A DNA stretch of 64,000 bases, taken from positions 1-64,000 of the IMG/VR virus record IMGVR_UViG_3300013426_000016. The stretch is one strand, 5' to 3'. The DNA comes from a virus. Lineage: Duplodnaviria > Caudoviricetes. The translations under genes were made by a program, and so were the position numbers. Below, one piece after another: positions 29,606 through 59,648 of this stretch. Below the pieces are notes generated by a model that saw nothing but the letters and a program-made list of their open reading frames with translations, did not search any database and was not told the origin of the DNA. Numbering within the stretch: position 1 is the first letter of the stretch; every line of letters starts with the position of its first letter.

Positions 29606-29606
29606 T

Positions 29607-31273: not shown

Positions 31274-31274
31274 T

Positions 31275-31872: not shown

Positions 31873-31875
31873 AAA

Positions 31876-32196: not shown

Positions 32197-32198
32197 AA

Positions 32199-33587: not shown

Positions 33588-33588
33588 A

Positions 33589-37167: not shown

Positions 37168-37179
37168 TCTTAGGTAATA

Positions 37180-38466: not shown

Positions 38467-38493
38467 TAGCTATTTTATATAGCTATTTTATAA

Positions 38494-38567
38494 GGACATT
38501 TAGTTTAATGGTTAAAAAACAAAGATCTTCAAAATCTTAGATAACTGTTCGATTCGGTTAATGTCCG
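38494..38567 (+). tRNA. Opal suppressor tRNA, anticodon TCA (inferred tRNA-Trp(UCA))
   Basis: Full cloverleaf: GGACATT/AATGTCC acceptor, GTTT/AAAC D-arm, AAGAT-CTTCAAA-ATCTT anticodon arm, short variable loop, AACTG-TTCGATT-CGGTT T-arm, G discriminator; no encoded CCA. Confidence 0.92.
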
Positions 38568-38827
38568 CTTAATATTTATATATTATGATTAAAAACTTTA
38601 ATATTATTTATTCCTACAAGGAAAATTTATACAACAATGAAACATTCAACTAAAAAATCCACAATTTTAACTAAAGACTATTCTCATTTAGACAACAATA
38701 CTTCAGTTTCTAAAGAAGAAAATAATTCTTCACAAGCTACAGAAATTACCTATCTTTCAATGGCCGATTTGACTATAGAAAAATATCTAGAAATATTGAA
38801 AGCAGCTTTTTTGGGTGAAAAAATAGA

Positions 38828-39286
38828 ATGTGGGAAGAACATCTAAAACGTGCAGAATTTTCTTTTGGAAAATATAAAGGAGAAGAAAATTTATCCCCTT
38901 TAGAAAAATGCGTTATATTAATGAAAGAACATAACTGTTCTTATAAACAAATTAGTTTACACCTCGGTTGCTTAAATAAAAAGTACATTAGAGAAATTTT
39001 ATTAAAATATAGACCCGATTTACTTAATATAAAAACTCCTCCAGTAAAAAAAGATTATATTGAAAAACGAGTTATAGGAATTATTTCTAAATATAAACAA
39101 ATTTCCTTTGACTTAGAAGAATTTGATAACTGTGATTTTTATATAGAAAACGGGGAATTGAAGTTTAAAACTGAAACTGATGATATTTATATTTTTAATG
39201 AATTTGACGAAAGGACTAAATTATCTATATTATATAATATAGCAAGACTTTTAAACATAGACATAAAAACAACAGAGTTTACATAA
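38828..39286 (+). CDS. Hypothetical protein with HTH-like segment
   Basis: SYKQISLHLG..NKKYIREIL. Confidence 0.55.
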   Translation: MWEEHLKRAEFSFGKYKGEENLSPLEKCVILMKEHNCSYKQISLHLGCLNKKYIREILLKYRPDLLNIKTPPVKKDYIEKRVIGIISKYKQISFDLEEFDNCDFYIENGELKFKTETDDIYIFNEFDERTKLSILYNIARLLNIDIKTTEFT

Positions 39287-39666
39287 TGAGAAAAACAAAA
39301 AAGTATTACAGAGATCTAATTAATAAAGATAAAAATTCTGCTTTTTCCATTGCAGAAGAAGTCATTACCAAATATGGAACCCACACCAAAACTCGTGGAG
39401 AAAGAACTGTTCTTGCAGAGTCTAGTTTTCCATGGAATTGTCAGGTACATGGATTTAGTATTTATAAAAAGAAATTTTATGTAGATATTTATTGGCAAGG
39501 AGATTCTACAGATGGTATAGCAGCCGTTCTTTTTAAAGATGCTATTAAGGGTACTACTATATATAGAGAAGTAGATGGTCCATATGAAATACATGGTAAT
39601 TTACAAATTACTTCAGAAATGGTATATGAAGCACTAAAAGATTTCGCTAAAAGATATTTAAATTAA
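39286..39666 (+). CDS. Hypothetical protein
   Basis: Coupled ORF. Confidence 0.55.
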   Translation: MRKTKKYYRDLINKDKNSAFSIAEEVITKYGTHTKTRGERTVLAESSFPWNCQVHGFSIYKKKFYVDIYWQGDSTDGIAAVLFKDAIKGTTIYREVDGPYEIHGNLQITSEMVYEALKDFAKRYLN

Positions 39667-39675
39667 TTTAATTTT

Positions 39676-40737
39676 ATGGATTTTAAAAAAGGTTATGAAT
39701 CTGGTAGATTTTCTGAGACTAAACTTTTTTTGGAAGAATATGGTGTACTTCCAAATAAAGTTGTGTTTAATTTAGAAGAGGACTCTTTTAATTTGGAAGA
39801 AATTACTCCAGAATTTATTAAAGAAAAGTTTCCCGAAGCTATTTACGCTAAAGTAGAAACTTTGGGAGAGGCAAATAATAACTCTGATGTAGAATTTTTC
39901 GATATAGAAACACTTACAACTCCATTCGATGAAAATTCTATTTCTTTATTCGAGGAAAAGTGTTTCACCTTTATATGTCCAGATAAACTTATTATTTGGT
40001 ATTGTGATCCTATAGATGTTGGCGCTAAATTAGAAGCTTCTCTTTCTATTTTGCCACGAACAAGAGAAGCATGTAAAGCAACAGAAGTTAAACTTGTAGC
40101 ATTTAATCAAGATTATTACACTATTTCTTCTAATATCAATCCTATGGAAATAGATATAAATGAAAATTATAATGACGATTTCTTTCCAGTTTATAAGGAT
40201 ATAGAAGAATTCCTTTTTAATAGAGAGAGTGGTTTAATTGTACTAAGAGGTAAAGTAGGCAGCGGTAAGACCTCTTTTATACGTCATTTAATTACAACTC
40301 ATCCAAATAATTATATTTTGGTAACAAATACTCTTGCAGAACATATAGCATCGCCAGAGTTTATTTCCTTTATGCTTGATAATAAGGATAGTGTATTTAT
40401 TTTGGAGGATTGTGAACAAATTTTGATGGATAGAAGTACTAACTTTAATGGTGCTATAGCTAATATATTGAACATGTCAGATGGGTTGCTGTCAGATATT
40501 TTTAATATAAAGTTTATTTGTACTTTTAATGCCGATATTAACAAAATTGATCCAGCTCTTTTAAGAAAAGGTCGTTGTTTTGCTAATTATGAATTTAAGC
40601 CATTGTGTTTAAAGAAAACAAATGCTCTTTTGAAAAAATTGAATCATCCAGAGAGTACAGTTCCTATGACCTTGGCAGAAATTTATAATTATAATGATAC
40701 TGATTGTAATGTGAAAACACAAAAAATGGGTTTCTAA
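39676..40737 (+). CDS. AAA+ ATPase (BCS1-like/classic AAA)
   Basis: GKVGSGKT, FILEDCE, LNMSDGL, IDPALLRKGR, KMGF end. Confidence 0.88.
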   Translation: MDFKKGYESGRFSETKLFLEEYGVLPNKVVFNLEEDSFNLEEITPEFIKEKFPEAIYAKVETLGEANNNSDVEFFDIETLTTPFDENSISLFEEKCFTFICPDKLIIWYCDPIDVGAKLEASLSILPRTREACKATEVKLVAFNQDYYTISSNINPMEIDINENYNDDFFPVYKDIEEFLFNRESGLIVLRGKVGSGKTSFIRHLITTHPNNYILVTNTLAEHIASPEFISFMLDNKDSVFILEDCEQILMDRSTNFNGAIANILNMSDGLLSDIFNIKFICTFNADINKIDPALLRKGRCFANYEFKPLCLKKTNALLKKLNHPESTVPMTLAEIYNYNDTDCNVKTQKMGF

Positions 40738-42323
40738 TGATTAATGAATTATTGTTTGAACAAGATGCACGAAAAAAGATTAAAGCTGGTATAAATACTG
40801 TGGCTGAAGCAGTTAAATCCACTTTAGGGCCTAAAGGAAAGTGTGTTGTGATTAAAGATCTTAATGGAAAAATAAAACTCACTAAAGATGGGGTTTCTGT
40901 AGCAAAAGAAATTAATTTGAGTGATTCCTTTGAAGATACTGGAGCACAACTTATAAAACAAGCAGCCATTAAAACTTTAACTGCTGTAGGAGATGCTACA
41001 ACCACAAGTACCATACTCGCACAAGATCTTATAAATAGAGGAGATGAAGTTCTTACAGACTCTAATTTTCCTAAATTGCAGCAAGGTATTTCTCTTGGTC
41101 TAGAACGAGCACTTGAATATATAAAGAAAGAAGCACGATCTATAAAGCAAAATGATTTGCAAAGCGTTGCTACTGTTTCAGCAAATAATGATTATGAAAT
41201 TGGAGAAATCATTGCTAGAGCGTTTAAGAAAATTGGTAAAGATGGAGTAATTTCTGTAGACGAATCTACTAATTATCAGACTTATGTGGATGTAACTACT
41301 GGAATGCAATTTGATAAAGGATATATTTCTAATCATTTTGTAACCGATGTAATTAAAGATACCTGTATTCTTGAAAATCCTTATATTCTTATTACAGAGG
41401 AAAAGATTACAAAGATGTCTAGTATAGCTCCTCTTTTAAATGAAGTTGCTTCTGAAAATAAAGCTATTCTTTTAATTGCTTCTGATTATAGTGAAAATGT
41501 TCTAGAAGCTCTTCGTTTAAATGTATTAAATGGAGTAATTAAACTTTGTGCAGTTAAAACTCCAACGTTTGGAGAATATAGAAAAGCGTTTTTGCAAGAT
41601 ATTGCCATTCTTACTAAAGGTAGAAGTATTAATTATGATATGGGATTGGAAATAGAAGATATAACTATTTCTGATTTAGGTCAGTGTAAAAAAGTAATCG
41701 TAAATAAGGATACTACTACTATTATAGGAGGAGAAGGTGATATTGATAATAGAGTAAAAGAACTTAAAGAAGATCTTGCTCGAATTAAGGCAGATGCCAC
41801 TATGGATGGCAGTTTTATGATTGATTTTCTTAATCAGAGAATTGCTAAACTTACTGGAGGTATTGCTAGAATTTATGTAGGAGGAACTACAGAACTCGAA
41901 CTTAAAGAAAGGAAGGATAGAGTTGAAGATGCAGTTGCTGCTACTAAAGCTGCTATAGAAGAAGGAATTGTAGTAGGAGGAGGATTAACTTATTATAACA
42001 TTTATAATTATCTGGACCAAAATTATCCAAGTGATTTAGATGTTAAACTTGGTTATGAAATCTTTAGAAATGCTTTACTTGCCCCACTTCACCAACTGTT
42101 TAAGAATAACGGCATTGTTACAGAAAAAGAGATTGAGAAATATACTTCTCAATTTACTGATAAAATTGGATATGATGCCAAAAATAACCTCATTACAGAC
42201 CTTTATAGAAGTGGGATAATAGATCCTGCCAAAGCAGCCAAACATGCTCTTAAAAATGCCGTTTCTGTGGCAAATTTATACCTTTCTATTTCTTGTGTAA
42301 TCAGCCCAATTATTGTTCAGTAA
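40737..42323 (+). CDS. groEL: Phage chaperonin (GroEL/Cpn60 family)
   Basis: TLGPKG, TKDGVSVAKEI, GDATTT, GMQFDKGY.S, RIAKLTGG, DRVEDAV.ATKAAIEEGIV.GGG, GIIDP.K. Confidence 0.95.
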   Translation: MINELLFEQDARKKIKAGINTVAEAVKSTLGPKGKCVVIKDLNGKIKLTKDGVSVAKEINLSDSFEDTGAQLIKQAAIKTLTAVGDATTTSTILAQDLINRGDEVLTDSNFPKLQQGISLGLERALEYIKKEARSIKQNDLQSVATVSANNDYEIGEIIARAFKKIGKDGVISVDESTNYQTYVDVTTGMQFDKGYISNHFVTDVIKDTCILENPYILITEEKITKMSSIAPLLNEVASENKAILLIASDYSENVLEALRLNVLNGVIKLCAVKTPTFGEYRKAFLQDIAILTKGRSINYDMGLEIEDITISDLGQCKKVIVNKDTTTIIGGEGDIDNRVKELKEDLARIKADATMDGSFMIDFLNQRIAKLTGGIARIYVGGTTELELKERKDRVEDAVAATKAAIEEGIVVGGGLTYYNIYNYLDQNYPSDLDVKLGYEIFRNALLAPLHQLFKNNGIVTEKEIEKYTSQFTDKIGYDAKNNLITDLYRSGIIDPAKAAKHALKNAVSVANLYLSISCVISPIIVQ

Positions 42324-42610
42324 TGTTACAATTTCCAGAAAAAATATATCTTCATAATTTAGGTCACGCCTATAGTTCATTTAAAAGAGAACTTATTTAT
42401 AAAGATATTAAAGGTGATGTAGCAAGATACGTAGCTACAGAAGTTTCTCGTATTATAGGAAATCTTGATGATATACAAGCAATTGACTTCGATGGGGGCC
42501 CTTTCTTAGGAGTAGGAGATTCTCTTTTTAATTCTTTTGTAATTACAGGCTTTGTAAGAGATAAGAAAACTAAAGAGATTTTAGTACTTTTGACAAAATG
42601 TTCTATTTAA
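42323..42610 (+). CDS. Hypothetical protein
   Basis: TAATG-coupled start MLQFPEK; IDFDGGP motif. Confidence 0.55.
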   Translation: MLQFPEKIYLHNLGHAYSSFKRELIYKDIKGDVARYVATEVSRIIGNLDDIQAIDFDGGPFLGVGDSLFNSFVITGFVRDKKTKEILVLLTKCSI

Positions 42611-42975
42611 ACTTAATTTTAATACTTGCTATTTCTTGGTTTTTAGGACAGGATAGAGCAAAGGCAGGTAAAGCAATAGGTTTCCGCTCATTATGTATAG
42701 TAATGTTAGGAGCTTATTGTTTTACATATTCAGCTTATATGCCTTCTGGAGGAATTGATTACCATGTTATTGCACAAATAGTTTCTGGTATTTCTTTCGT
42801 AGGAGCTGGATTAATTTTTAAGGACAAAAGTGTCCATAATTTAACTACTGCAATTCTAGTCTGGGCCTCTGCAAGTATAGCAGTATTATTAGGTTTAAAT
42901 AAGATTTTAGAAGCAGTAACTATAACTATTATAATTCGATTAGTTTTACTTTATAAAAAGAAAGAAAAATGTTGA
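42598..42975 (+). CDS. MgtC/SapB-family membrane protein
   Basis: G.DR....K..GFRS..IV.LGA, IAQIVSGISFVGAG.I, LTTA..VW. Confidence 0.85.
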   Translation: MFYLNLILILAISWFLGQDRAKAGKAIGFRSLCIVMLGAYCFTYSAYMPSGGIDYHVIAQIVSGISFVGAGLIFKDKSVHNLTTAILVWASASIAVLLGLNKILEAVTITIIIRLVLLYKKKEKC

Positions 42976-43340
42976 AAGAACGATTTTATTATGGCAGAGA
43001 GTATAAGCTAGCAAATATACCTTGCCTTATTTCTGACAGAGGAGAACTGCTTGCTACTGGCGAACCTCTACAAGTTAAGAGTCTTCCAAGGATTACTATT
43101 TGTGGCATTTGGGATACTAATACTAATATTATGTATTTTGGAGTTTCTAGATGTAGTGCAAGAGACCATTTTGATAAAAGAATTGGTAGAGATATTGCTT
43201 ATTCTCGTGCTCTAAATAAACCATTTAAAGTGGTTAAGATTCCTCCTACTTTGCATGTAAGTGATACTTTTATGTCTACTGCCAAGCTTATAGAGGAAGA
43301 AGTTATGAGTATGGTATATCCTATTAACCTTAATGGATAG
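42969..43340 (+). CDS. Hypothetical phage protein (CS..D.F.K.IGR.IA family)
   Basis: Conserved motif. Confidence 0.65.
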   Translation: MLKERFYYGREYKLANIPCLISDRGELLATGEPLQVKSLPRITICGIWDTNTNIMYFGVSRCSARDHFDKRIGRDIAYSRALNKPFKVVKIPPTLHVSDTFMSTAKLIEEEVMSMVYPINLNG

Positions 43341-43785
43341 CTATACCATTTATTGTGATGGTTCTTACCAAGCTTCTATAGAATGTGGTGGCTGAAGTGC
43401 TATTATTATAAAAGACGATACTATTATAAAGAAACTTTATTGTGGTTGTAAACATACTACAAATAATAGAATGGAACTAAAGGGAGTTTTAGAAGCTTTA
43501 AAATATTTTAAAACTCCCTCTATTCTCACCATTTATTCAGATTCTCAGTATGTAGTTAATTCTATTAATGCAAAACAAGTATATAAATGATTTGAAGAGC
43601 ATGATTATTCTAAGAAAAACTTAGACTTGTGATTTGAGATCATTGATTTACTTGACTTTCATACAGTTAACTTTATATGAGTAAAGGGGCATAATAAAAA
43701 CAAATATAATGAGTTAGCTGATTTATTAGCAGTTCATGCCGCACAGTGTCTTAATTTAGAAGAAGATGTTCCAATTAGTATTTAA
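43333..43785 (+). CDS. rnhA: Ribonuclease HI (TGA=Trp; 150 aa)
   Basis: IYCDGS, GG*SA, TNNRMEL, SDSQY, NLDL*, *VKGH, NELAD; all four Trp positions are TGA. Confidence 0.93.
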
Positions 43786-44131
43786 AAAAGTAGGAAATCA
43801 TTGGTATTTAGATATTCCTCATGAAAATCCATCTGACTTAAAACTAGATAGAAGAATTGAGTTCCTATTAACAAAAGCAGATAAATATAACGATAAAATA
43901 GTTACTGTTTATTTGCATGAGTTAACAGATGTTATTATAGAAGAAGGTTTAATCCAGTTTCAGGAAAGTGATTTTCAGAGGTATTTCTTAACTAACGATG
44001 ACTTTCAAATGAAAATGTGGATAAATAATAGAAAATTTACTATTTCTAGTAGTTTATACACATTAATCGAGAATTATTATCACTTAGATTTACACTTAGT
44101 TGCTTATAGAATAAGTTTATATGGAATTTAA
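43766..44131 (+). CDS. Hypothetical protein
   Basis: F.K...HWYLDIP motif. Confidence 0.6.
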   Translation: MFQLVFKKVGNHWYLDIPHENPSDLKLDRRIEFLLTKADKYNDKIVTVYLHELTDVIIEEGLIQFQESDFQRYFLTNDDFQMKMWINNRKFTISSSLYTLIENYYHLDLHLVAYRISLYGI

Positions 44132-44253
44132 AAAAATTGATGAAGTAGAAGCTTCTATTAAGGAGAGTTATATTAAAATCCTTAAGGAAAGAATTAGTCT
44201 TATGAAACAGTCCATTGTTGCTATTGAGGACGCTTTAGATTATCTTATAGAAG

Positions 44254-44571
44254 ATGCTACAAAAGAGAGTCATTAAAGCTAAAGTAATGGCAATTAGAAA
44301 GGACCTTTACTCCAAATATGTATTTCAGAATATTGATGAGGCAGAAAACAGTTTATATAGATATTTAACTGTTACAAGATGTCCAAATTGAAAAGAACCA
44401 GAAGATTTACGTGTGGGAGATGAAGGTTTTTTAGAATACGAAGATGTTAAAAAAGGAGATATTTATAAAGATAAAATAACAGGTGAAGATAAACAAATCC
44501 AGTATGATAACCTTTATTTTATGAACTTTGTAAAACAAATAAAAGATAATGTAAAAGAATATAGTTTTTAA
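44254..44571 (+). CDS. Hypothetical protein (TGA=Trp; 105 aa)
   Basis: One in-frame TGA (CPN*K); fills the intergenic gap exactly. Confidence 0.6.
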
Positions 44572-44572
44572 T

Positions 44573-45424
44573 ATGAAAGATATAAAGAAGATGACAGAAT
44601 TTGGAGAAACACTTAATACAGCACTTAACTCAGTTAATATGTATGTATGAAAGACATATAATGGTACAGAAGTAAAGCTTATAGAAATGACACCAAAAGC
44701 TCTACAAAAAGCTTATAATCATGTAAATGAAATGCTTTATAATAAGAGTAAACTTACACCAGGTAAGTACCAAGTAAAGAAGAATATACAGAATTATATG
44801 GCTAGTTGTAATGCAGAGTTGTTCATGCGTTATTTGCTTTACGAATGTAACATTGATTGTCTTAAAACAAATATCCAAATTATCGATTTTCTTAGAGAGA
44901 GTAAACGAGCTAATAATTTGAGTTCTACAGATTCAGTTACTACCGTATTTTCTAATGCACCGAGAGAATTTGAAACTGTCACCATTGGGCAACTTTTAGA
45001 TGCCTGTTTAGATAGATTGGGAGTATTTAATCGCAAAATGCTTACTGATAGTTTTATCCTTGCACAAGGTATTTGGCTAACAGATGCTGAAAAGAAAGAT
45101 CTTACGGAGTACGATGATAATGGAAACAAAAAACCATGAATTAATGTAATTAAGGAAAGACTTATGCTCCCAGTAGGAACTAAACTGAAACTTAATTCTC
45201 ATGGACTTTCTTACAAGGAATTTAGAGCTATTATACATCTTACAGAACTTCCAAAGTTCTCGAGCCTTCCAACAGATACTCTTCTTTTACTTAGAGACAA
45301 GATATTTGTACTTCTTGATTACGATACTGATTTCTTTATTGAGAAATGGTTGAAACTGAAATCACAAATAGAAGAAGTAGCTAAGGAAAGAGAAATTTCA
45401 CTATACTCTTCAGAACAAAAGTAA
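44573..45424 (+). CDS. Conserved hypothetical protein (TGA=Trp; ~283 aa)
   Basis: Joins track ORFs 44687 and 45164 in one frame; TAATG overlap with PolA. Confidence 0.7.
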
Positions 45425-47448
45425 TGATTTTATATTTAAGTAATCAGACACCTTTAATAGAAGACAGTAGATATAGACTTACTACAGTCGAAGAGGTCTT
45501 AGATTTATTTAAAGATATAAAATTAGTACAATTTGACACTGAAACAGATGGATTAAATCCTCATTTAAAACAGTTAATGACTCTTCAGATAGGTTCTGAT
45601 AAAATAGATACTAGAGTGGTTATAGATTGTACTACTGTAGATATACACCTATTTAAAGAGTTCTTGGAAAGCAAAATGCTTGTTTGTCATAATGGTAAAT
45701 TTGATTTACAGTTTCTTTATAAACAAGGAATTGTTCCAAGAAAAATTTACGATACTATGATTGCAGAACAACTTTTATATTTAGGTTATAGACCTGGTTA
45801 TATAAGTTATAGTTTAAAAGCTTGTGCTGAACGATATCTTGGTATAGATATAGATAAAACTGTTAGAGGGCAAATACGTTGAAGAGGAATAGATGCAGAA
45901 GTAATTGTTTATGGAGCAGGAGATGTAACTTATTTAGAGCAAATAATGTGAAAACAGTATGCTGAAGCAAAACGACAAAATTGCCTTAAAGGCGTACAAA
46001 TAGAATGTGAAGCCGTTCCTGCCATTGCCTATTTAGAATATTGCGGTATTTGTCTTGATGCTAAGAAATGGGAAGAAAAAATTATTAAAAATAAAAAATT
46101 AGTTGTAGAGTATAAAGAGCAATTAAATAATTTTGTAGTTTCTTTAAATGAAGGAAATAATCCTTTTTGTTATTTAGATCCACAAGGAGATCTTTTTTCT
46201 GGTTTTTCTGATAAACCTTCTTGTATAATAGATTGAAATAGTCCAGCACAAGTAACAGCTTTGGCTAAGTATTTAGGTTTTGATACTTCCACTCAGGATA
46301 AGAAAACAGGAAAAGATAAAGACTCTGTAATGGAAAAAGCATTAAAACCTCAGAAGGGAATTAATGACGAATTTTTAAAATTATATTTTGCATATAAAGA
46401 AGCTGCAAAGGAAGTCTCTTCATTTGGATATGGGCATATAAATGCAGTAAATCCTCTTACTAATTGTATACATACTACTTGAAGACAAATAGGAACTGCC
46501 TCAGGAAGAATGTCCTGTGGTGAAGGTACACATCCAGATGAAGAACTCGCTCAGTATAAGCATTTACCTAAGGGTGCTTGTCCTAAAGTTAATTTACAAC
46601 AATTACCTGCGGACGAAGAAACTAGAAGTTGTTTTATCTCTCCTCCTGGGCATTTAATGGTAAGTGCAGATTTCAGCGCTGAGGAAAGTCGTTTGGCAGC
46701 AGAAATTTATAATGAACCTGTTCTACTTGAGGAGTTTTTACATGGAAGTGGAGATGTGCATAGTGTATTTGCAAAGACTTTTTTTGCTAAAGAGCTAGAA
46801 GGAGTTCCGGTAAAAGACATTAAAGAAAAGTATCCAGAGTGAAGAAAGTTAGCAAAAGGTCCAGAATTTGCACTTTCTTTTGGTGGAGGCACAGGCCCTA
46901 TAAAATCTATTGTTCAGTGTTCGGAAGAAAGAGCACAAGAAATTTATAATAATTACCAAAAAAACATGAAGGCAACTTGTGATTTTGCAAGAAAAGGAGC
47001 TTTATTTGTTAAATCTCATGGTTATATTATTATAGATCCATATTCGGGAAATCGAATGCACTGAGCAGATTGAAAGGACTGATATAAAGAAGAACAACTA
47101 ATGAAATATGGAGGATATAACTCATTTTCTAAAGAACAACAAAATGAGCATCGAAAAACAGGTGCCTATTGGGAAAGAATGGCTAGAAATGCAGTAACAC
47201 AAGGTTCTGGAGCTGTAATATTAAAAATAGCCTTAAAGAATTTATTTGACTATATAATAGATAATAATTATTTTAATAAAATTAAAATTGTTGCCGCAGT
47301 ACACGATGAAATTGTTTGTACTTTTCCAGAAGAAAATAAAGATTTTCCAAAAATATTAGAACAAACTATGGAAAATGCAGCAGCAGTTTTAGTACATAAA
47401 TTACCTATACCAGCTGAAGCTAGTGTAGGAAATCATTGAATACATTAA
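45424..47448 (+). CDS. polA: Family A DNA polymerase with 3'-5' exonuclease (TGA=Trp; 674 aa)
   Basis: FDTETDG, HNGKFD, DTMIAE, D*NSPAQV, TASGRMS, NLQQLP, SADFSAEESR, R..AKGPEFA, N...QG, VHDE; four track fragments in one frame separated only by TGA (9 counted). Confidence 0.93.
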
Positions 47449-48356
47449 TGAAAATAAATTTACACCTTTTAAGAACTCTTTATTTGATTAATAGAGGGTC
47501 TAAAACAGAAGCTCCTATGCTTAATTTTATTTTAAATTATTGTAGGAATCTGAAAAATGTAGACATAGAAATAGATAATGAAAAAAATCTGTTTATAACT
47601 AAGAATACTACAAATCCTCTTTATATGCCTTGTATCATAGCGCATATGGACACTGTATTTGATTATGATTTTGAAAGAGAGCTTGTACAGAAAGGAAATT
47701 TTATTACAGCCAGAGATGCTAAAACAAAGGCTCCTTGTGGTTTAATGGCAGATGATTCTAATGGTATTTATTGTGCTTTGAGATTACTCGATATTATGCC
47801 AAATATTAAAATCTGTTTTACAACACAAGAAGAAATAGGAGGAATTGGAGCTGTAGTAGCTACTGAAAACACAGAGTTCTTTAATAATGTAAATTTCTTT
47901 TTACAGGCAGACAGAAGAGGGAACTCTAACATAATCACTTTTACAAATGGAAGAAAAATTGTTTCAGATAAATTTGTAGAAGATATAACACCTATAATTA
48001 AAAGGTATAATTATTCTACTACAAATGGTATTTTTACCGATATAGGAGAAATTGCCTTTTGGTGTGGTATTTCTGGAATTAATATTTCTTGTGGGTATTA
48101 TAATGAGCATACGGTAAATGAAACTTGTAATACAGTTGAATTACATAATTGTCTTTATCTTATGAGAGAATTAATAAATACTCTTAAAGATAAAGAACCA
48201 TATAAAGTAGAATTTGCTCCAAATAAAGATCTTGATAGATCTCTGTTGAAGTATAATGACTATTTCTCATATAATACACATGATTATCTGTTTGAACCTC
48301 TTCCTTGTGACACCTGTTCAGATATGGACTGTATGAATTGTACCAAAACATTTTAA
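47448..48356 (+). CDS. Zn-dependent peptidase (M20/M28/M42-like)
   Basis: AHMDTV, ADD.NG, EEIGG.G, DRRG, GYYNEHT; ATG overlaps the PolA TAA. Confidence 0.8.
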   Translation: MKINLHLLRTLYLINRGSKTEAPMLNFILNYCRNLKNVDIEIDNEKNLFITKNTTNPLYMPCIIAHMDTVFDYDFERELVQKGNFITARDAKTKAPCGLMADDSNGIYCALRLLDIMPNIKICFTTQEEIGGIGAVVATENTEFFNNVNFFLQADRRGNSNIITFTNGRKIVSDKFVEDITPIIKRYNYSTTNGIFTDIGEIAFWCGISGINISCGYYNEHTVNETCNTVELHNCLYLMRELINTLKDKEPYKVEFAPNKDLDRSLLKYNDYFSYNTHDYLFEPLPCDTCSDMDCMNCTKTF

Positions 48357-51300
48357 TGGACAGAACAGAAAGACAGAAATTAGGAATTAAACGCTGATTA
48401 GAAGCCGGAGCTATCGGAACGCTCGAATACGGTACGGGCGTAGGTATCGAAATAATAAAAGCCTAGCTTCTTAGGAATAAGAAGTTTTTATTGGGCAAAA
48501 TCGGTAAAACTCCAAAAGGACAATACCGAGGTAATTTAACTAGTAATATAGTTAAACACCGTAGAGCGTAGGGAATGAACCTAAAAATAGAATATAATTT
48601 CCCCAAGAGTGTCCAATACCCCAACTGAAATAAGTGGGTAAAAATGTACGCCGAGCTATAAGGTAACTTATAGAACTAAAGGATAAAAAACCTTTAGGAT
48701 AACATTACTGAAGACCCGCACTGCTATAATGGCTATACAGCTATTATTAAGAAAGAATCCAGAAGCTTCTATTTTAATCAGCGTTCCAACCAACTATCTG
48801 AAAAACCAATGAATAGAAAATCTCCAAAAGTTTAATATAGAAAATTGTGAAGTTGTAGTGATAAATACAATAGTTAGGCATACATATACTGTTGATTTGC
48901 TAATAGTCGATAAATAGGCTTTGTTGACTTTAAATTTACTTAATTGTCGGGAACTTCCTTAGAGTTCTTTCTACTAAATTATAATAGAAATATATATAAT
49001 GGTGAGAATAATTACCTCAGTATAGTAAAAAAGAAAGAAATTGGATAATCCGCAGCCAAGCTTCTAATTTAGAAGAAGGTTCATCGACTATCCCAAATGG
49101 GAGTACAGAATAAAATTCTGGAAACAGTAAAATTTATAATTTTTAATTAAAAAATGAAAAAACTTTATTATTTTTATACTTTATCTACAACAAAAGATAT
49201 ATCTAATATTAGATACGTAGGCGTTACTACTCGTACTTTAAAACAAAGATTAAGTGGGCATAAATATTGTGCTCTGCATAAAAATAAGAGATCTACCGCA
49301 GTTCATAAATGAATGTATTCGGAATATTTAGCTGGAAATGATATAATTATTTCTCAAATAGATTGTTGTGAAGAAGCTGTCTGAGAGGAAACAGAAAAGT
49401 ATTGAATTAAAGAATATCAAAACAAAGGGTTTAAATTATTAAATATCCAAAAAGGCGGCTCCGGAATAGTAACAAAAGAAATGAGAAATAAAGAAGGGTT
49501 GCAAAGAAGTATAGATGCTCATAAAATTCCAGTATATGCTTTAGATGATAATTTAAATGTAGTTTTAGAATTTTCTTCAGCTGTAGAAGCAATTCGATTT
49601 TTTGGAGGAAAAAGTAAAACTGCTATATCAAATGCTATTTCTAAAAACGTTAGTACTAAAAAATCATTTGGTTATTACTGAGTAAAACAAAATGATTATA
49701 AAAATGGAAATTTTTATGTTAATACCACTCCTAACTTTGAAAGTTTTAAAAAGAAAGTGTATCAGTTTGATAAGAACGGTACGTTTGTAAAAATGCATGA
49801 AAGTATAAAGAGTATAGAAAGGTATTATAATATACAAAATTCTTCTCCTTTAAGACACGCTATAAGAAAGAAAAGATTATATAAAAATTCATTTTGATCT
49901 TTTGAAAAAGAAGCCGACTTTGATTTAAATTCTCCATTTAGATTTTTTGAAATAGATAAAAATGAAAATATAATAGATAGGTATTTAAAAGTTGAAGATA
50001 TTTTGAAAAAATATAACTGCTCTTCTAATTTTTTATACAAAAAGGATAAAAATACTAAAGGTATATTACCCAATGGTAATAAAATTATAAAAAATAAAAA
50101 TTATAAATAAGATATAGTCAGACTTTATATGAAAGTATAAAGAGTTTTGGAAGCACATGGTGCGGCCGCTACAACCCTCCTTTCTATCTTTACTACAGTT
50201 AGTTATAGAATGCTTTTATGCTTAACTGCCACTATAGATAGATTAGATGGTAGAGGAGAAATCCTTAAACAATATGCACCAGTATGTGATCAGATAACCT
50301 TAACAGAAGCAACTAAAGAAGGTTGAGTAGCTCCAGTTAAAAACTATTTAGTTCTCTTAGATGTTGATTTACAGCCATATAAAGAATTAGATAGAAAATT
50401 TAATAGCTATTTTGCGTTCTTTGGCTTTCAGTTTGATACAGCTATGAACTGCTTGCAAAACTGACGCTTTCGCAACAAATATGCTAAAGAAATAGGTTCT
50501 GATCCAAAAACTGTTTTACAAATGAGTTCCTGTTGAATGAAGGCTTTACATGCAAGGAAATCCTTTATAGAAAACCATCCTAAGAAAATAGAAATTTGTA
50601 GAAGAATAATAGATGCAAAACCGAATACTAAAGGTATTTTATTTTGTCCTACTATAAAATTTGCAAAAGAAATTAAAAGGGGAAAGGTTTTATACTCTGC
50701 ACAAAAAACTTCTGAAAATAAAAAAATTATAGAAGAATTTAATGTTGCGGAGAAAGGATGAATCGCTTCGAGTCGTATGTTGAATGAAGGTAAACCAAAA
50801 AATCTAATTTAAAAGACATTTAATGAAAAAATTTTATTTATACACACTTAATGATCCTAGAACAAATGTTCCTAAATATGTGGGAATTACTTGTAATTTA
50901 CAACAAAGATTAATGTACCATCTAAAAGACACCGCAGATACAAAAAAGACACGTTGAATACATACTTTAAAAGAAGAAGGTATTACTCCTATAATCACTA
51001 AATTAGAAGAATCTGAAGATATTTATAAAATAATTAATCTAGAAATAGAGTATATTAAAAAGTATAAAGAAACTTTAGATTTAGCAAATACAACTATCGG
51101 TGGTGAATATTATGCAATTGGTACTCCAATAGATTGCTATGATTTACAAGGTAATTATATAGAAACTTTTTCATCTATGGTGGAAGCTCTGCCTGGGATA
51201 AAACACTATAGTGGTATTTCTGCTGTATGTAATCATAAACGAAATTATGCTTATGGTAAAATCTGAAGATATCAGGGAGAGCCTGTTACTAAAGAAGATT

Positions 51301-52219
51301 TAGAAAAAGTTAAAAAATCTCTTAATAAAGCTAAATATAAAGAAGTTTTAATAATAGATTTAGAAGGAAATATCTTAGATAGATTTCCTTCTTTAACTAA
51401 AGCCGGTCAAAGTAAAAAGTGGGGATCTATCAGTAATTTACGTTGTGCGATGAAAGGGCATAATGCCCATGGAAATTCTTTTCTTGCTAAGAATCATTTT
51501 ATTTGTTCTTCCATGGAAGATTTTTATGAAAAACGTAAAAAATATGAAGATTTTTTAAAATCTAAAATTGTTCTTCAATATACTTTAGATGATGAATTTA
51601 TAGCAGAATATCCTTCAGTAATGGAAGCAAGTCGTGTATTAAATAAAAGTTGGGCTTCAATTTTTAGATGTTGTAAAGGACAACAACAAGAAGCTCATGG
51701 TTTTAAATGGAAACTTAAGTTTTAAATATAAATACGCCGTGTAATAAAGTAATTTATTATAGTATAATACCTGGATATCGTTGAAAGCTAAACTTTTTAA
51801 AAGCATGCTAACTTAACGAGGCAAAGAGCTAAAGACTCAGCCCTAGAGACTAGATACAGGTACCCCTATTTTAGGGTGAAGATATAGTCCAGACTGTAAA
51901 CAATTTTTTGGAAAGCGAAAGCTTTTAGCAGTAGGTAGATATTCAAGGACTTACAACAGGAATCATAATGAATGTGAATAGTTCTAAAATTTCTAGTGTC
52001 CAAAAAACTGGTCGTTGTTGTAGATTTGCACCTAATAAAGTTGCAGAAATATTTACATTGGCCATTAAAGGAACTCAGGAAGTAAAATGGTTTAATAACA
52101 GTAGCACAACAGAGTATATAACTATAAATGACTCTACAGACTTAGACAAAGTATTAAATGGAGAAGAAATAAACTCTCGACAAAGAGAGTGAACAGAAGA
52201 TAAAACTTATAGATTTTAA
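48356..52219 (+). CDS. SF2 (DEAH) helicase, spliced: exons 48356-48445, 48711-48911, 50150-50791, 51935-52219 (~405 aa, TGA=Trp)
   Basis: Exon joining restores GTGVG|KT (Walker A), LIVD|EAH (Walker B), LTAT, NEG|VDI (motif V), QKTGRCCR (motif VI); every exon length is a multiple of 3. Confidence 0.9.
48446..48710 (+). ncRNA. Group I intron, ORF-less (265 nt), in helicase Walker A
   Basis: Exon ends in U, intron ends in G; P1 taggt/gccta with U.G pair; core resembles the intron at 55561. Confidence 0.85.
48912..50149 (+). mobile_element. Group I intron with homing endonuclease, in helicase DEAH motif
   Basis: P1 agtcgat/gttgact; AATCCGCAGCCAAG, GACTA...AAGATATAGTC (P7) elements; terminal G. 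Confidence 0.88.
49154..50110 (+). CDS. GIY-YIG/NUMOD1-type homing endonuclease (TGA=Trp; 318 aa)
   Basis: YFYTL...IRYVGVT..LKQRL..H, E.Y*I, LLN...GG; NUMOD1-like repeats; five in-frame TGA. Confidence 0.8.
50792..51934 (+). mobile_element. Group I intron with homing endonuclease, in helicase motif V
   Basis: GGT| 5' junction, terminal G, GAGACTA...GAAGATATAGTCC core downstream of the ORF. Confidence 0.85.
50823..51725 (+). CDS. GIY-YIG/NUMOD1-type homing endonuclease (TGA=Trp; 300 aa)
   Basis: YLYTLNDP...KYVGIT.NLQQRL..H, LE..YI, N.T.GG; C-terminal VLQYTLD.EFIAEYPS..EA...GFKW. Confidence 0.82.
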
Positions 52220-52266
52220 AATGACTTAAATAGTAATTTTTGGAACTAAATACGATTTTAAATTTA

Positions 52267-52833: not shown

Positions 52834-53932
52834 TGTAGATTTACTTTTTAAGAAAATTGATGAAGGTAGAGCTGGAAAAAATATTGGATTGAGTACAGGT
52901 ATACCTAAATTAGATAAATATACAGGAGGAATCCAAAAAGGTGTTTATACACTTATTTTTGGACTTTCGGGTTCCGGAAAGACTTCCGTAGCTTTATATA
53001 ATTATATTTATCGCCCATTAAAAGATAATCCCGAAAAAGATCTTAAATATATTTATTTTTCTTTGGAATTAGGAGCAGATGTTTTGCTCAGCAAACTCCT
53101 CTGTTTATGGGTTTATGAGGAATTTGGAGTAATAATACCTTACTCCTCTATAATGTCTTGAAAAGAGCCTTTAAATGACGAATTTTACAATTATATATGT
53201 AAGGGAAGAAAATGACTAGAATCTATTTCTGAAAAACTTATAATAATAGATACTAATCTTTCTTCAAAAAACTTTTATTCTAAAATAATGACATTTTTAG
53301 AAGAATGAGGGACATTTAAAGAATCTGAAGATGGAAGAAGAAAAATATATATTAAAAACAATCCAGAGCAGTTTGTAACAGTTGTTCTGGATCATATAGG
53401 TCTATTACTTTGTTGTGATGGACATACTAAAAAACAGGAAATAGATTTAGTTTCCCAGTATGCAGTATCTTTAAGAGAGAGATGTGGTGTTTCTTTTGTA
53501 ATTTTACAACAAGAAAATAGAAATTCTGCATCCTCCGATAAAATTAAAATGGATATGACAGACTGTAGTCTAGACGGCCTTAAAGATAGTGGCAATACTG
53601 GAAATGATGCAGAATTATGTATAGGAGTCTATAATCCTATAAAATTTAAATTAAAAACTAAATCTGGTTATCCAATAATTTCAGAAGACAACGGTTTTGG
53701 TTTTACGGGCTTTAGAAATCGAATTAGATTTTTGCAGATCATAAAGAACCGTACAGGCCCTTCTGATAAGTCTATTCCAGTAAACTTTTTTGGAGAAATC
53801 GGTCTCTTCAGAGAATTACCAAAACCAGAAGAAATTAAAAATCCATTGGACTATATGTCCTTAAACCCAAATAAACAAGAGATCGTAGAACCAGACAGTT
53901 CTACAAAAAAATTTATTTCATATGAATTTTAA
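52826..53932 (+). CDS. DnaB-like (SF4) replicative helicase (TGA=Trp; 368 aa)
   Basis: STGIPKLD...GG, GLSGSGKT, FSLEL, VLDHIG, QQENR, LKDSG, IIKNR.G. Confidence 0.88.
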
Positions 53933-53935
53933 AAA

Positions 53936-56900
53936 ATGGCTATAACATTACCTACGACAAAAATTCCTGCTACTACTCAAGATCCTAAATACTTAATCCT
54001 TTTTGGATTACCAAAGGTTGGAAAAACAACAATTCTTTCTACTCTTGAAGGAAATTTAATTTTGGATTTGTAATAAAGTCCCTATAATCAGTAATGATTA
54101 TAGCAAACCCCTTGAATTTTTGGAAAAACTGTTATATTTATTCCCATTTTCAAAAATATTTTTTTGTATATTTGTAAATGGTTTTAAGTATGTTTAACAG
54201 TTAATCAAAAGCTAAGTATGAATGATATAGAAAAATTATGTTTATATAAAGGAAAAGAAGTAGAAACTAAAATTGAAGATGTTGATTATCAATCTAATAA
54301 AGAATTTCAATCTGATTTTTACAATGTTATAAAAAGCATTTCGCAAAAAGTAAATGGCAAATATATGTATTTTTACATAGTAGAGTGTAAAAAATGTGGA
54401 TCTCTAAAAAAGATATATAGGTCAGATTGAAAAAACCAAAAACTTAGAATGTGCAAAAGGTGCCTCTCTATTACAAAAAGAGAATCTCACATTGGTTATG
54501 AAAATAAAACATATAAAGTTGTTGGTATTAATTTTGAGAGAAGTAATCAAAATAAAAGACGTGTTTATTATGATGTTGTATGTAAAAATTGTGGCGCAAA
54601 ACTAGTGTTACGTTGAGATGCAATTTATTCTGACACTAAAAATACGCGCTGTTCAAAGTGCTGTGGAAATAATATTATTCCATCAGAAAATGCCGTATAT
54701 AATGTTTTATACAACTCATATAAACAAAACGCAATTATGCGTAATTTTGGTTTTGAATTAACAAGACAAGAATTTAATAATTTAATTTTACAAGATTGTT
54801 TTTATTGCGGAAATCCTCCTCACGAAGTACAGTCATTAAAACGTTATAATAAAACAGGAGTTCCTATTTTTACAAATGGAATAGATAGAAAAAATTCAAA
54901 TTCTGGATATACTATTGAAAATTGTGTCCCATGTTGTGAAATGTGCAATAGAATGAAATTAAATTATGATATAAATACTTTTTATAAACATATATATAAA
55001 ATATATCATCATAAAAGTTTAACGACTATCTCGCAAGAGAGTACATCACAAGCTAATGGTGATGGAAGTGGGGGGTCTCCAGAAATGGAGAATGATATAG
55101 TCTAATCTGCATGGCGACATGCAGCTGCCAAAAGCGCATGTAATGTTGCGAATTACATGGAATATAAATGTTTGAAAACGGTTCTGATTATGTTTCTGCA
55201 CTTAAAATGAAAGTTAATTCTATTAAAGAACTTAATGAAATCTGTACAGCTATAAAAGAGGCCAAATGTCCATACAAATATATTACAATAGATACTATTA
55301 CAGCAGTAGAGGAAATGGCTAAACCTCTAGCAATTAAACTCTACCAAGATTCCCCAATGTTTTCTGAGAAATATGCAAATGTTAAAGATCCCGCAGCTCT
55401 TCCTAATGGTTCGGGATTTTCATTTTGGAGATCCTCAATAGAACTCATTATTAACAAAATTGCTTCTTGTGCCCCAAATATTATAATTTGTGGACACGTT
55501 AAAGATGCTGCACTTTCAGAAAGCACAAATGGTAATTTAAAAACTCTCGATTTAACAGGTAAAATTTTTGCATAAAATAAAAAGTATTTTTATATTTGTA
55601 TTTATAAAATAATCGAATATGGAAAATACTATTAGTACACTTTATTTAGAAGGTTTGTCAAGTAGACAAATTTCAGATTTTTTAAAAATAGATAAAAAAG
55701 AAGTAGATTTATATATAATAGATAATTATTTTACAGAAAAGAAAAATTCTAAACAAAAAATAACAAAAGAGATTTTAAAGGAAGCTTTAAGTTTAAAATA
55801 TAAAGGAGAAACTTTTGAAAATATAGCTAAAAAATATAACCTTTCAAGTAGTCTTTTTACACAGAAATTTAAAAAACTTAGAATAGATTATAATTCAAGA
55901 AAATATGATTATTCTTTATTAAATAAAGAAACTGTTACTGACATAGTTAAAAAATTTAATGATGGGTATACCGTTAACGATTTAATTAAAATCTACGGTT
56001 TTAATAAAACTGTTTTGGCAAACGTTATTAATGAAAACGGAGGAAATACAACTCCATGTTCTTTTTGTTCTACTATATTTGATAATATAGATACTGAAGA
56101 AAAGGCATACTGGTTAGGGTTTTTATATGCAGATGGTTGTGTTGGAAGTAGAGATAATTCTCTAGAATTATCTTTACAACTTTTAGATGCAAAACATTTG
56201 TATAAGTTTAAAAGTTTTTTAAATGCAGAAAACAAAATTGCTTTAGACTTTAAAATAGGTACATTTGGAAGGTGTAGATTTTCTATTTCTAATAAACATT
56301 TTAAAGAAACTTTAATTTCTTTAGGTTGTTTTCCGCAAAAGTCTTTAAGGTTAGAATTTCCAAAAGAAAACCAAGTTCCAACAGAATTTTTAATCCCTTT
56401 TATTAGAGGTTATTTTGATGGAGATGGTTGTTTATCCCACACTTTTAGTGATACTATTAAATCTCGTTTCACAGTTAAAACTAGTTTTATTGGAACAAAA
56501 GAGTTTATATTTTCTTTACTGAAGTTCCTCAAAACACAAGAAATTTTTGGATCTATTTATAAAAATAAAACTTATAAAGATAATACTTTAGAAGTAAAAT
56601 TCAATAAAACTAATTCTGTTAAATTACTAAATCTTATATATAATGATGCTTCTATTTATTTAGATCGAAAATTTGAAAAATACAAATTTTATGCTAAGCA
56701 TCATAATTTTGCCGTCTCTGTAAGTGATTACAGAGATTATGAACGAACAATATCGGAGAAGGCTAAACACTGAATAAATAAATATTTTAATATAGATTTT
56801 GATACAGTGCACGCTAACACCGAGATAACTAAAAAACGTAACGGGTTTTTAGCATCGTAACGCATAGAGGTTGAAACTATATATTTTATAGAATAAAATA

Positions 56901-57226
56901 CCTCCACGAGTGTTCGTTATCTTTTTAAAAAGATAAATATATATGCTGATCTTATGAGAAATTATAAGAATTAAGAGATAAAAAACTCTTAAGATAACAA
57001 AATGAAAACTTCGAGAATTTTAGCTGCAAAGTCAGACGCAATCGGTTTCGTGCACCGAAATGAAAATAGTGATCTTTGTATACAGTTTGGAACTGATGGA
57101 GAAGTACTTACTGGAGCAAGACCCCAACATCTCGCAAATAAAGATATTATAGTAGCAGAACGTAAAGAGGATGGTTCTTTTGTTCCACATTGGGAAAGAA
57201 TCTATCCATCTCTTAATAGCAAGTAA
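53936..57226 (+). CDS. AAA_24 / Sak4-like phage NTPase, spliced: exons 53936-54067, 55171-55560, 57005-57226 (~247 aa)
   Basis: FGLPKVGKTT, LILD|FENG, ITIDTIT, ICGH.KD, DLTG|KT, DAIG; exon lengths multiples of 3. Confidence 0.87.
54068..55170 (+). mobile_element. Group I intron with HNH endonuclease
   Basis: P1 ggat/gtcc with U.G pair, GACTA...ATATAGTC P7, terminal G. Confidence 0.85.
54218..55105 (+). CDS. HNH (His-Me finger) homing endonuclease (TGA=Trp; 295 aa)
   Basis: CxxC ribbons, CFYCG...NGIDRKNS..GY...NCVPCCEMCNRMK; joins track ORFs 54218 and 54737. Confidence 0.82.
55561..57004 (+). mobile_element. Group I intron with LAGLIDADG endonuclease
   Basis: GGT| junction, terminal G; core at ~56710-57004 resembles intron 48446. 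Confidence 0.85.
55619..56860 (+). CDS. LAGLIDADG homing endonuclease with N-terminal HTH repeats (ends 56773 if TGA stops, 56860 if Trp)
   Basis: AYWLGFLYADGC and FIRGYFDGDGC double motif. Confidence 0.9.
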
Positions 57227-57582
57227 TGGAAGCAACTATTAAAGTGCAGAATAATAAATTAGTTTTAAACAAAGAGGCTACACAACTTCTTGGTGTTAAA
57301 GCTAATGATCGAATTGCAGTAAATTATTGATCACAGAATGCAGAAGAGACTTTTCCAGTAATTGGAAGAGCCTCTTTATTTGCTTGTGACGGAAACAGAT
57401 TAACGAAATCTAACACGGTTTCCTATAGAGGAGCACAAAGAGACATTTTGCTCCAATATGGAAATTATTTTAAACTAGAACCATTTAAACATTATTTTAA
57501 AATGGTTAAAATAGAGGAACCCGAAATTACCTCTGAAGAAACATTTGAAGAAGAAGAAGAATATCTTAACAATTTAATTTAA
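57226..57582 (+). CDS. Hypothetical protein (TGA=Trp; 118 aa)
   Basis: TAATG coupling; one in-frame TGA. Confidence 0.6.
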
Positions 57583-57589
57583 AACAAGT

Positions 57590-58258
57590 ATGAATTTTAA
57601 TTTTGATGAGGCCCTTAAGGCAAAAGAGACAGGTAAATTTCTTTCATTTGGTATAAAGGACGCTACTTTTAAGGGCGTTGAATATGGCCAGCAGACAACT
57701 CAGAGTGGTGAGGATCTTGCTTATATGGCTATGAAGTTTGATATTGATGGTTATGGAGACTATGAGGCTAAGATTTTTGAGCCTCGTTCTAATGAGCGCC
57801 AAGAAATGCAGTGGGGACTTACACCTTCTCCTCTCGATCATTTTCTTATTATAGTACGAGAGTTGCTTGAGGCAATTGCTCCAACAGCTTTTGAAGAGCT
57901 TAATGAAGGCAAAAAGAAGCTTTCTGGTAGCTTTAAACAAGTAGTAGCTGCGGTTGCTAGTATGACTGCTCCGGGCATTGGAACAAAGACACAAATTAAG
58001 CTTGTTCCTAATAGTAAGGGTTACGCAAATCTTCCTGCATTTCCGGCTCGTCTTACTAAAGATGGACAGCTTGGAATTTCCACTCGTATTATTGGAAAGG
58101 ATCTTACTCTTACAGCACGTGAGCTTAAGCAAATTGAGACAGCACAGGCAGCTAAGCCAACGCAGATGTCTACTTCTACCACTACAGATACAGTAAACTC
58201 TATGCTTGATGATCTTAACGGTTCGGATTCTTCTTCAGATTCAGATTTACCGTTCTAA
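57590..58258 (+). CDS. Putative single-stranded DNA-binding protein
   Basis: Acidic tail ending DLPF; follows the Sak4-like ATPase. Confidence 0.6.
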   Translation: MNFNFDEALKAKETGKFLSFGIKDATFKGVEYGQQTTQSGEDLAYMAMKFDIDGYGDYEAKIFEPRSNERQEMQWGLTPSPLDHFLIIVRELLEAIAPTAFEELNEGKKKLSGSFKQVVAAVASMTAPGIGTKTQIKLVPNSKGYANLPAFPARLTKDGQLGISTRIIGKDLTLTARELKQIETAQAAKPTQMSTSTTTDTVNSMLDDLNGSDSSSDSDLPF

Positions 58259-58261
58259 GAG

Positions 58262-59266
58262 ATGGAAATAACTTTTCCAGTTATTCTTTCTAAAGAGCTT
58301 ATTTATAATAAAGTTCGTGAAGAGGAAATCTTGGAGTATTATTTAGGTATTCCAGTAAAAAAAGGTTTATTTAAAAGTCCATTAAGAAATGATAATTCTC
58401 CCACTTGTGCTTTTTATAGAGCGCGTAATGGAAGGATTATTTTTAAGGACTTTTCTGGAGCATTTTCTGGAGATGCTATATCTGTAGTTATGGAGAAATT
58501 CCAATGCAGTTATATGAAAGCTCTTCAGATTATAGCGAATGACTTTGGGATTGTAAAAAATGAAAATCTTAAAGTAAATAAACCTAAAATGGAATACTCA
58601 GGTAGTATATTGGAAGAAAATAAAACCAGTATTATACAAGTAGAAATACGAGATTTCCAAGATTACGAACTCGCTTGATGGAAAACATATGGGATTACAG
58701 AAAAGACTCTAAAACACTTTAGGGTCTTTTCTTGTAAGAACATATGATTAAATGGTACTTTATTTCATTTAGAAACAAGTAAGCAAAAGATTTTTGGTTA
58801 TTTTGGAGGAACAAAAGATGGAGTAGAAAATTGAAAAATCTACTTTCCTGGGAAAAAGAAATATAAATTTATTTCTAATTGGAAAGCAACTAAAATACAA
58901 GGAGCCGCCCAATTACCAAAAGAAGGTGGAGAGTATTTAGTAATTACAAAATCTCTTAAAGATTGTATGACTTTATATGAATTTGGAATTACAGCAATCG
59001 CTCCTAACTCAGAAAATTTATTTGTTACTCCTGCTCAGTATGAGAAATTAAAAACTAAATTTAAAAATATTTTAATTGTTTATGATAATGATTTAGCTGG
59101 TATCCACGGATTAAATAAGATTAGAAAAGAATTTCCTGGAACAAAAGTAGCTTTTATACCAAGAAAGTATGAAGCAAAAGATATTTCTGATTTCTATAAA
59201 AAATACGGAAGAGAAGAAACTCAGAAATTGATAACCACAGCTAAAAATTTTTATTTTAATGGCTAA
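58262..59266 (+). CDS. DNA primase (DnaG-like TOPRIM; TGA=Trp; 334 aa)
   Basis: SPLRNDNSPTC...FKDF, ITKSLKD, SE, YDND.AG, KDISD; fragments 58262 and 58967 share a frame. Confidence 0.87.
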
Positions 59267-59648
59267 AAAACGATCCGCAAACTATTGTCGTACAAAAGGA
59301 AATACTTTTGAGCGTAAAATAGTAAAAGAGCTGAAAGAACTTGGATTTAACGTAGGTACTACAAGAAATAACTCTAGAACAGAAGATGCAGATAAGGTAG
59401 ATATATATGATGTAGATAATACACTACCTTGTAAGATACAATTAAAAGCCACACAACAAACTCCACAATATTTTAAAATACGTTCAGAATCTTCTGTTAA
59501 AGCAGAAGACTTTGTAGTACTTTGATCGAAACAAGAAAAAAGAACTACAAATATAGTCTCAGTTGGAGAAGTTGTAATTATGGATAAACAATTATTTTAT
59601 AAACTTATAAAACCTTATGCAAATGGAAAAAGTACAAGTGACATTTAA
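59259..59648 (+). CDS. Holliday junction resolvase-like PD-(D/E)XK nuclease (TGA=Trp)
   Basis: KGNTFER.I..EL..LGF, D..KVDI, IQLK. Confidence 0.7.

Follow-up and report, generated by a model that had tools for sequence, protein, structure and literature searches.

The DNA described here is the first 64 kb (the window) of a single 203,856-bp IMG/VR virus record, IMGVR_UViG_3300013426_000016; coordinates beyond 64 kb are those of the parent contig. The window contains a tRNA with the anticodon UCA and, downstream of it, a block of replication genes whose reading frames are interrupted by TGA codons. We present evidence that TGA stands for tryptophan (Trp) in these genes and that the tRNA is the predicted opal suppressor of the phage that carries them. 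The features of the locus are listed in Table 1.

Table 1. Features of the window, and share of TGA among Trp codons in different parts of the low-GC phage (aa, amino acids; GC, G+C content; ORF, open reading frame).
Feature	Position	Strand	In-frame TGA and remarks	Basis
Standard-code phage, left part, 52% GC	1..24865	.	own terminase at 19967-21502 (-)	GC profile, Pfam
Left repeat copy	24866..25755	+	end of small gene, 132-aa and 99-aa genes, function unassigned	
Presumed early block, 23 ORFs	28346..42610	+	1 TGA / 54 TGG; early judged from position	codon counts, Pfam
Opal suppressor tRNA, anticodon UCA	38494..38568	+	G73, no encoded CCA	ARAGORN; Rfam RF00005
RNase H, 150 aa	43333..43785	+	4 TGA / 0 TGG	Pfam PF00075, E=1e-29
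Family A DNA polymerase (PolA) with 3'-5' exonuclease domain, 674 aa	45424..47448	+	9 TGA / 2 TGG	Pfam
SF2 (DEAH) helicase, four pieces	48275-48463, 48687-48914, 50141-50809, 51935-52219 (48275..52219)	+	three inserts	phrog_16
GIY-YIG/NUMOD1 homing endonuclease in helicase	49154..50110	+	5 TGA	Pfam
Second GIY-YIG/NUMOD1 homing endonuclease in helicase	50823..51725	+	2 TGA	Pfam
DnaB-like replicative helicase, 368 aa	52826..53932	+	3 TGA; 54% identity to L001 orthologue	Pfam PF03796
Endonuclease VII/HNH-like protein	54218..55105	+	2 TGA	phrog_1035, phrog_3118
AAA_24 ATPase, two pieces	55168-55575, 56992-57223 (55168..57223)	+	both pieces align to one L001 ORF	Pfam
LAGLIDADG endonuclease gene, free-standing, splits AAA_24 ATPase	55619-56860	+	1 TGA	Pfam
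Primase (CHC2 zinc ribbon and Toprim), 334 aa	58262..59266	+	3 TGA	Pfam
RusA-like Holliday junction resolvase, 129 aa	59259..59648	+	1 TGA	phrog_244, E=6e-8
TGA share of Trp codons	replication block		0.67	
TGA share of Trp codons	158-176 kb		0.41	
TGA share of Trp codons	structural and packaging genes		0.25	
TGA share of Trp codons	59.8-78.6 kb		0.14	
TGA share of Trp codons	giant genes		0.10	
TGA share of Trp codons	176-182.6 kb		0 (0 TGA / 39 TGG)	

ARAGORN found a single tRNA within the window, with the anticodon tca, and the Rfam model RF00005 covers it end to end (64 bits, E=1e-13); nothing else in the window reached the gathering score in the Rfam scan. The predicted cloverleaf comprises 74 nt (38494-38567) with a 7-bp acceptor stem (GGACAUU/AAUGUCC), a 5-bp T stem, a 4-nt variable region and the T loop UUCGAUU. 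The anticodon loop CUUCAAA has U33 and a purine at position 37, and a G stands at the discriminator position. A preceding sequence-only reading of this DNA had described a complete tRNA with anticodon TCA, short variable arm and G73, and both programs agree with this description. ARAGORN names the gene 'SeC', a label which might be taken in favor of a selenocysteine tRNA but which any tca anticodon receives. The 7/5 acceptor/T arrangement and the short variable region differ from the long-arm selenocysteine form, and by its sequence the tRNA is of the standard elongator type and not a selenocysteine tRNA. It keeps C35, A36 and G73, the bacterial Trp identity elements, and U34 is tolerated by tryptophanyl-tRNA synthetase (TrpRS). 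Across the whole contig ARAGORN detected three tRNAs, i.e., Sup-UCA at 38494 and tRNAs for Met and Gln at 170178 and 176926, respectively. No domains of release factor 1 (RF1) or TrpRS were recognised across the contig, and the tRNA is therefore the sole recognisable code-change factor of the phage. A perfect palindrome rich in AT, TAGCTAT-TTTAT-ATAGCTA, with TTTTAT after it (38464-38493), separates the stop codon of a PcfJ-like gene from the start of the tRNA and may act as terminator or as processing signal.

We compared the coding capacity under different genetic codes on the plus strand between 42.6 and 59.6 kb. ORF cover was 0.495 under code 11 and 0.883 with TGA as a sense codon (code 4), and the longest ORF grew from 384 to 674 aa. 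In 5-kb bins of the replication block, cover rose from 0.27–0.52 to 0.84–0.88 under code 4. A reassignment of TAG (code 15) was rejected, since TAG as sense codon brought no gain in coding density (cover 0.475). The frames were broken by TGA only, never by TAA or TAG. Over the whole low-GC phage to which the block belongs, 154 in-frame TGAs are spread over 66 of 149 ORFs, the remaining 83 reach TAA or TAG without passing any TGA, and at most three to four ORFs could end at TGA. TGA is thus essentially abandoned as a terminator in the recoded phage. With TGA read as Trp, the Trp content of the replication block was 1.27%, compared with 0.42% without these codons and 0.9–2.2% in the other blocks. 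In practical terms, about half of the replication module is missed by gene calling under code 11 and the terminase comes out truncated; a truncated 457-aa form of the recoded phage's terminase already stands in public databases.

The amino acid at TGA was deduced from conserved proteins. In an alignment of PolA with 120 database homologues (identity about 50%), five of the nine TGA positions hold Trp in every homologue or in all but one; Trp also ranks first among the residues at two further positions and second at one, and the ninth column holds Phe or Tyr. The homology spans 100% of the PolA length across the nine TGAs, and it also continues across in-frame TGAs in terminase, RNase H, the DnaB-like helicase and the primase. 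The closest full-length PolA homologue, encoded on a crAss-like contig with a crAss marker gene, is translated in full under table 11, and the test of the TGA columns is hence not circular. In RNase H, each of the four TGAs aligns to Trp in at least one of two alignments with PDB structures of RNase HI. The TGA sites that the sequence-only reading had picked out as conserved Trp positions proved to be such, namely W100 (DL-W) and W116 (W-VKGH) of RNase H and W271 (D-W-NSP) of PolA.

Terminase allowed the codons themselves to be compared. The gene of the recoded phage lies outside the window (150320-152527) and contains five TGAs. Single-protein queries gave no loci related to the PcfJ-like gene or the terminase; the terminase relatives came from an alignment query, and we read their codons directly from 80 related IMG/VR contigs. 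At the invariant Trp columns 70, 135 and 255 only TGA and TGG occur (62/17, 55/24 and 56/24, respectively), and column 260 has TGA and TGG in 60 and 17 relatives plus three Phe codons. The terminase of 79 of the 80 relatives contains an in-frame TGA. Compared with the closest relative, L001, the TGAs of the phage pair with TGG 17 times, with TGA nine times and with another codon eight times. The earlier assignment of TGA to Trp is thus upheld by three independent alignments, those with PolA homologues, solved RNase H structures and terminase codons.

The fragmentation of genes under code 11 might also mean that the TGAs are true stops, either in a set of pseudogenes under decay or in genes whose expression depends on sporadic read-through with no fixed residue. 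We give this explanation next to no credence. Part of the fragmentation has another cause in endonuclease-bearing inserts (described below), whereas the interruptions in question are TGA only and fall on invariant Trp columns, TGA and TGG interchange across the 80 relatives, and the same phage is found near-identical in several assemblies. Decoding of TGA as glycine (code 25), cysteine or selenocysteine, for which the ARAGORN label could be cited, is very improbable as well: the residues at TGA columns are Trp and otherwise mostly aromatic or hydrophobic, but never predominantly Gly or Cys. Taken together, the results for PolA, RNase H, terminase, L001 and Trp content exclude pseudogenes and a decoding as Gly, Cys or selenocysteine.

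The sequence-only reading had further claimed that Trp at TGA fuses fragments into full-length RNase H, PolA, two helicases, primase and resolvase. This was borne out for RNase H, PolA, the DnaB-like helicase, the primase and the RusA-like resolvase, but not for the SF2 helicase, which is still split by three inserts. In L001 a single unbroken frame of 413 codons matches all four pieces in order. Two of the inserts carry GIY-YIG genes: one of them interrupts the DEAH motif, and the second GIY-YIG gene precedes the last piece. As inserts split both the SF2 helicase and the AAA_24 ATPase, TGA as Trp alone does not restore either gene. Two GIY-YIG genes, one LAGLIDADG gene and one HNH-like gene lie within 9 kb, and Rfam detected no group I or group II intron ribozyme core in the split genes. 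The PolA gene is whole in this phage, whereas in L001 it is interrupted by a GIY-YIG insert. Its last TGA stands three codons ahead of the TAA, which overlaps the next ATG in TAATG (47446-47450), an overlap that had been noted before as gene coupling and is present in the sequence.

Recoding had originally been assigned to 38.5–59.6 kb. It is found there, between 42.6 and 59.6 kb, but it is not confined to this interval, as in-frame TGAs run to about 175 kb of the contig. Their density varies strongly along the phage. The block which holds the tRNA, together with GMP-reductase/IMPDH-like, PcfJ-like, AAA ATPase and GroEL-like chaperonin genes, uses TGG almost throughout, with a single TGA, whereas the replication block contains 43 TGA and 21 TGG (p=3e-15). 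The TGA share of the replication block also differs from that of the structural genes (p=1.4e-9). The tRNA block is nearly TGA-free, and a standard-code host would thus be able to translate it. We consider this locus a clean case, in that the near-TGA-free block with the tRNA is followed immediately by the genes that are most recoded, and it would be well suited to asking if recoding sets the timing of replication in addition to that of lysis.

The record itself is composed of two phages. GC is about 53% at 1–24.8 kb and about 51% beyond 182.7 kb, with about 30% in between; the high-GC parts together make 46,669 bp, and with the low-GC unit of 157,187 bp they give exactly 203,856 bp. At both joins lies a direct repeat, with 24866-25478 identical to 182053-182665 over 613 bp without mismatch and the next ~280 bp about 88% identical. 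In the shared module the two copies of the 132-aa gene are identical, and those of the 99-aa gene (25437-25736), which contains an HExxH motif and matches phrog_1233, are about 90% identical. The high-GC parts belong to a siphophage whose terminase is 57–58% identical to terminases of 45-kb Alistipes, Parabacteroides and Bacteroides siphophages. Its 57 ORFs end on TGA (32), TAG (14) and TAA (11), i.e., 56% on TGA. The tRNA lies in the low-GC part, inside the recoded phage, in agreement with its earlier description as phage-encoded. We also considered a prophage in a bacterial chromosome, to which the high-GC flanks had pointed, and rejected it: the flanks have their own terminase, match the 45-kb Bacteroidales siphophages and occur alone as 47-48-kb contigs.

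Both phages were found separately. The siphophage occurs in several samples on these 47-48-kb contigs with the repeat module in place, and the recoded phage on contigs up to 155 kb, closed through the same repeat module. Samples with the recoded phage include those of ENA assemblies ERZ808287 and ERZ808290. One further contig (L136; ENA ERZ808290 NODE_10, 159,685 bp) has the same join, in which the recoded phage passes into the siphophage by way of the repeat, with 99.97% identity over 5.7 kb. This contig terminates at a strain-variable site of the siphophage, and one IMG/VR siphophage contig breaks off 77 bp into the repeat; both ends are typical of assembly-graph branch points. An exact scan of IMG/VR for the right junction gave no match. 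The 203,856-bp contig is probably a repeat-driven misassembly of two phages, which we rate as likelier than a real recombinant by a factor of about three. Misassembly or not, the identical 613 bp are, by their sequence, the mark of a recent exchange between a standard-code and a recoded phage. The record is rated 100% complete and yet consists of two joined phages, which matters for catalogues of jumbo phages.

The shared 613 bp also bear on the code of the host. If the host itself used TGA for Trp, as Mollicutes do, the phage would merely follow it and the tRNA would only supplement host decoding. The GC of the phage, about 30%, is that of many low-GC hosts and would suit this proposal. Nevertheless, we consider it improbable. 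The ~14 kb around the tRNA avoid TGA and use TGG normally, which is unexpected in a host with UGA as Trp, and the repeat is shared with a TGA-stopping siphophage whose terminase relatives infect standard-code Bacteroidales. Moreover, according to published surveys the hosts of recoded gut phages use the standard code (10.1101/2021.08.26.457843). The shared repeat therefore argues for a common standard-code host, probably of the Bacteroidales.

Several matches relate the recoded phage to crAss-like phages. All annotated and named GenBank matches of its terminase are Crassvirales (24–29% identity), and the terminase relatives in IMG/VR (50–70% identity) come from 160-178-kb records that have direct terminal repeats. 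PolA is 34–39% identical to the PolA of cultured crAss phages and 70% identical to that of L001. Yutin et al. 2021 (PMC7886860) described Zeta crAss-like phages of 145-192 kb that are dense in introns and inteins, encode suppressor tRNAs and, over part of their genomes, reassign either TGA (to Trp) or TAG (to Gln). A 2025 paper (PMC12386605) reported the opal-recoded Zeta phage Lera with a tRNA-Sup-TCA and listed further opal-recoded genomes. Recoding with suppressor tRNAs in crAss-like phages, which the sequence-only reading had cited as known, is thus on record; TGA as Trp with a suppressor tRNA is already published for this phage group, and the phage described here is a further case. One peptide-level validation study of phage recoding (PMC9523058) covers TAG to Gln only.

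The phage resembles the Zeta group in size (157 kb), in its crAss-type terminase and PolA, and in the combination of TGA as Trp with a tRNA-Sup(UCA). As in these phages, conserved genes are broken by endonuclease-bearing, TGA-containing inserts, and recoding affects parts of the genome. Judged from size and from the terminase and PolA matches, it most likely belongs to the Zeta group. It differs from its relatives in having three tRNAs, compared with 7–25 in each of five related 166-176-kb records, and from the emphasis of the Zeta papers on late and structural genes in that the replication block is most recoded. With the stop-codon-recoded Jade, Sapphire, Agate and Lak clades of Borges et al. 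it shares standard-code-compatible genes around the code-change machinery, the depletion of the reassigned codon among terminators and a suppressor tRNA. Jade adds RF1 and TrpRS, neither of which was recognised here. Unlike in Agate and the crAss-like examples, where replication genes keep the standard code, replication is most recoded in the present phage, which in this respect resembles Lak, a clade that reassigns TAG.

UCA together with G73 also occurs in the tRNA-Trp(UCA) of the code-4 bacteria Mycoplasma and Spiroplasma and in opal suppressors derived from E. coli tRNA-Trp; TrpRS tolerates U34 and reads C35 and A36. Unlike the Mycoplasma and Spiroplasma tRNA-Trp(UCA), the tRNA described here is virus-borne and would act in a cell that presumably keeps UGA as a stop.

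We are highly confident that the low-GC unit (157,187 bp, from 24866) represents a crAss-like phage, most likely a member of the Zeta group, which uses UGA for Trp and encodes one UCA suppressor tRNA in a near-TGA-free block. The following order of expression is proposed. After infection, the TGA-free block with the tRNA would be expressed first. Host TrpRS would then charge the tRNA, which keeps C35, A36 and G73, and the charged tRNA would outcompete release factor 2 at UGA. Full-length replication products (TGA in 67% of Trp codons), like packaging, structural and lysis products (10–41%), would become possible only once the tRNA is charged.

Some observations weigh against this proposal. The order of expression is deduced solely from where the genes lie, and Trp charging of the tRNA is inferred, with G73, C35 and A36 compatible. 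In a pairwise comparison with about 50 tRNAs from the five related records, the suppressor tRNA was about 65% identical to many isotypes and no Trp origin was singled out; its best score was with another UCA tRNA, and among these tRNAs of related phages no sequence kinship to a tRNA-Trp was found. Neither blastn against GenBank phages nor an exact pattern scan of IMG/VR gave a close tRNA homologue. Moreover, the published timing model stresses late and lysis genes, whereas here replication is most recoded, so the switch may act earlier or may have no timing role. Borges 2021 (bioRxiv 10.1101/2021.08.26.457843), who set out this model, found replication genes 'variably' recoded, and mostly recoded in Lak; the pattern seen here is therefore unusual, but not unprecedented.

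Two other views of the recoding accept TGA as Trp. In the first, recoding is neutral and constitutive, with low-GC pressure turning TGG into TGA once a suppressor was present, and has no timing role. The genome GC of 30% fits this view, and so does a drift-like spread of TGA, seen in the terminase, with up to 13 TGAs in relatives compared with five here, and in RNase H and PolA, where L001 has TGG for TGA of the phage. On the other hand, the avoidance of TGA in the tRNA block and again at 176-182.6 kb implies selection on when genes can be translated. We assign the neutral view a minor, though appreciable, probability. In the second, rather doubtful view, the suppressor would be a weapon that forces read-through in co-infecting standard-code phages or in host defence genes, with TGA-rich replication genes gating replication on it, and the 204-kb join might be a real recombinant. 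This idea arises because the 613 identical bp imply a recent meeting in one cell and because TGA terminates 56% of the siphophage genes. Expression of the tRNA ahead of the genes that need it is the explanation we prefer to both.

Some TGA-free genes of the phage are recorded here in their own right. A gene at 61041-61808 encodes a dATP/dGTP diphosphohydrolase N-terminal domain (PF18909), and the GMP-reductase/IMPDH-like gene lies at 36166-37167; no PurZ-like gene was recognised beside either. Judged from their sequences, these two genes may hint at base modification or at nucleotide-pool chemistry. The AAA ATPase gene and a full-length GroEL-like chaperonin gene (PF00118, E=3e-59) occupy 39676-42323, immediately ahead of the recoded block. 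In L001, a ClpP gene is also located near the corresponding chaperonin/ATPase region.

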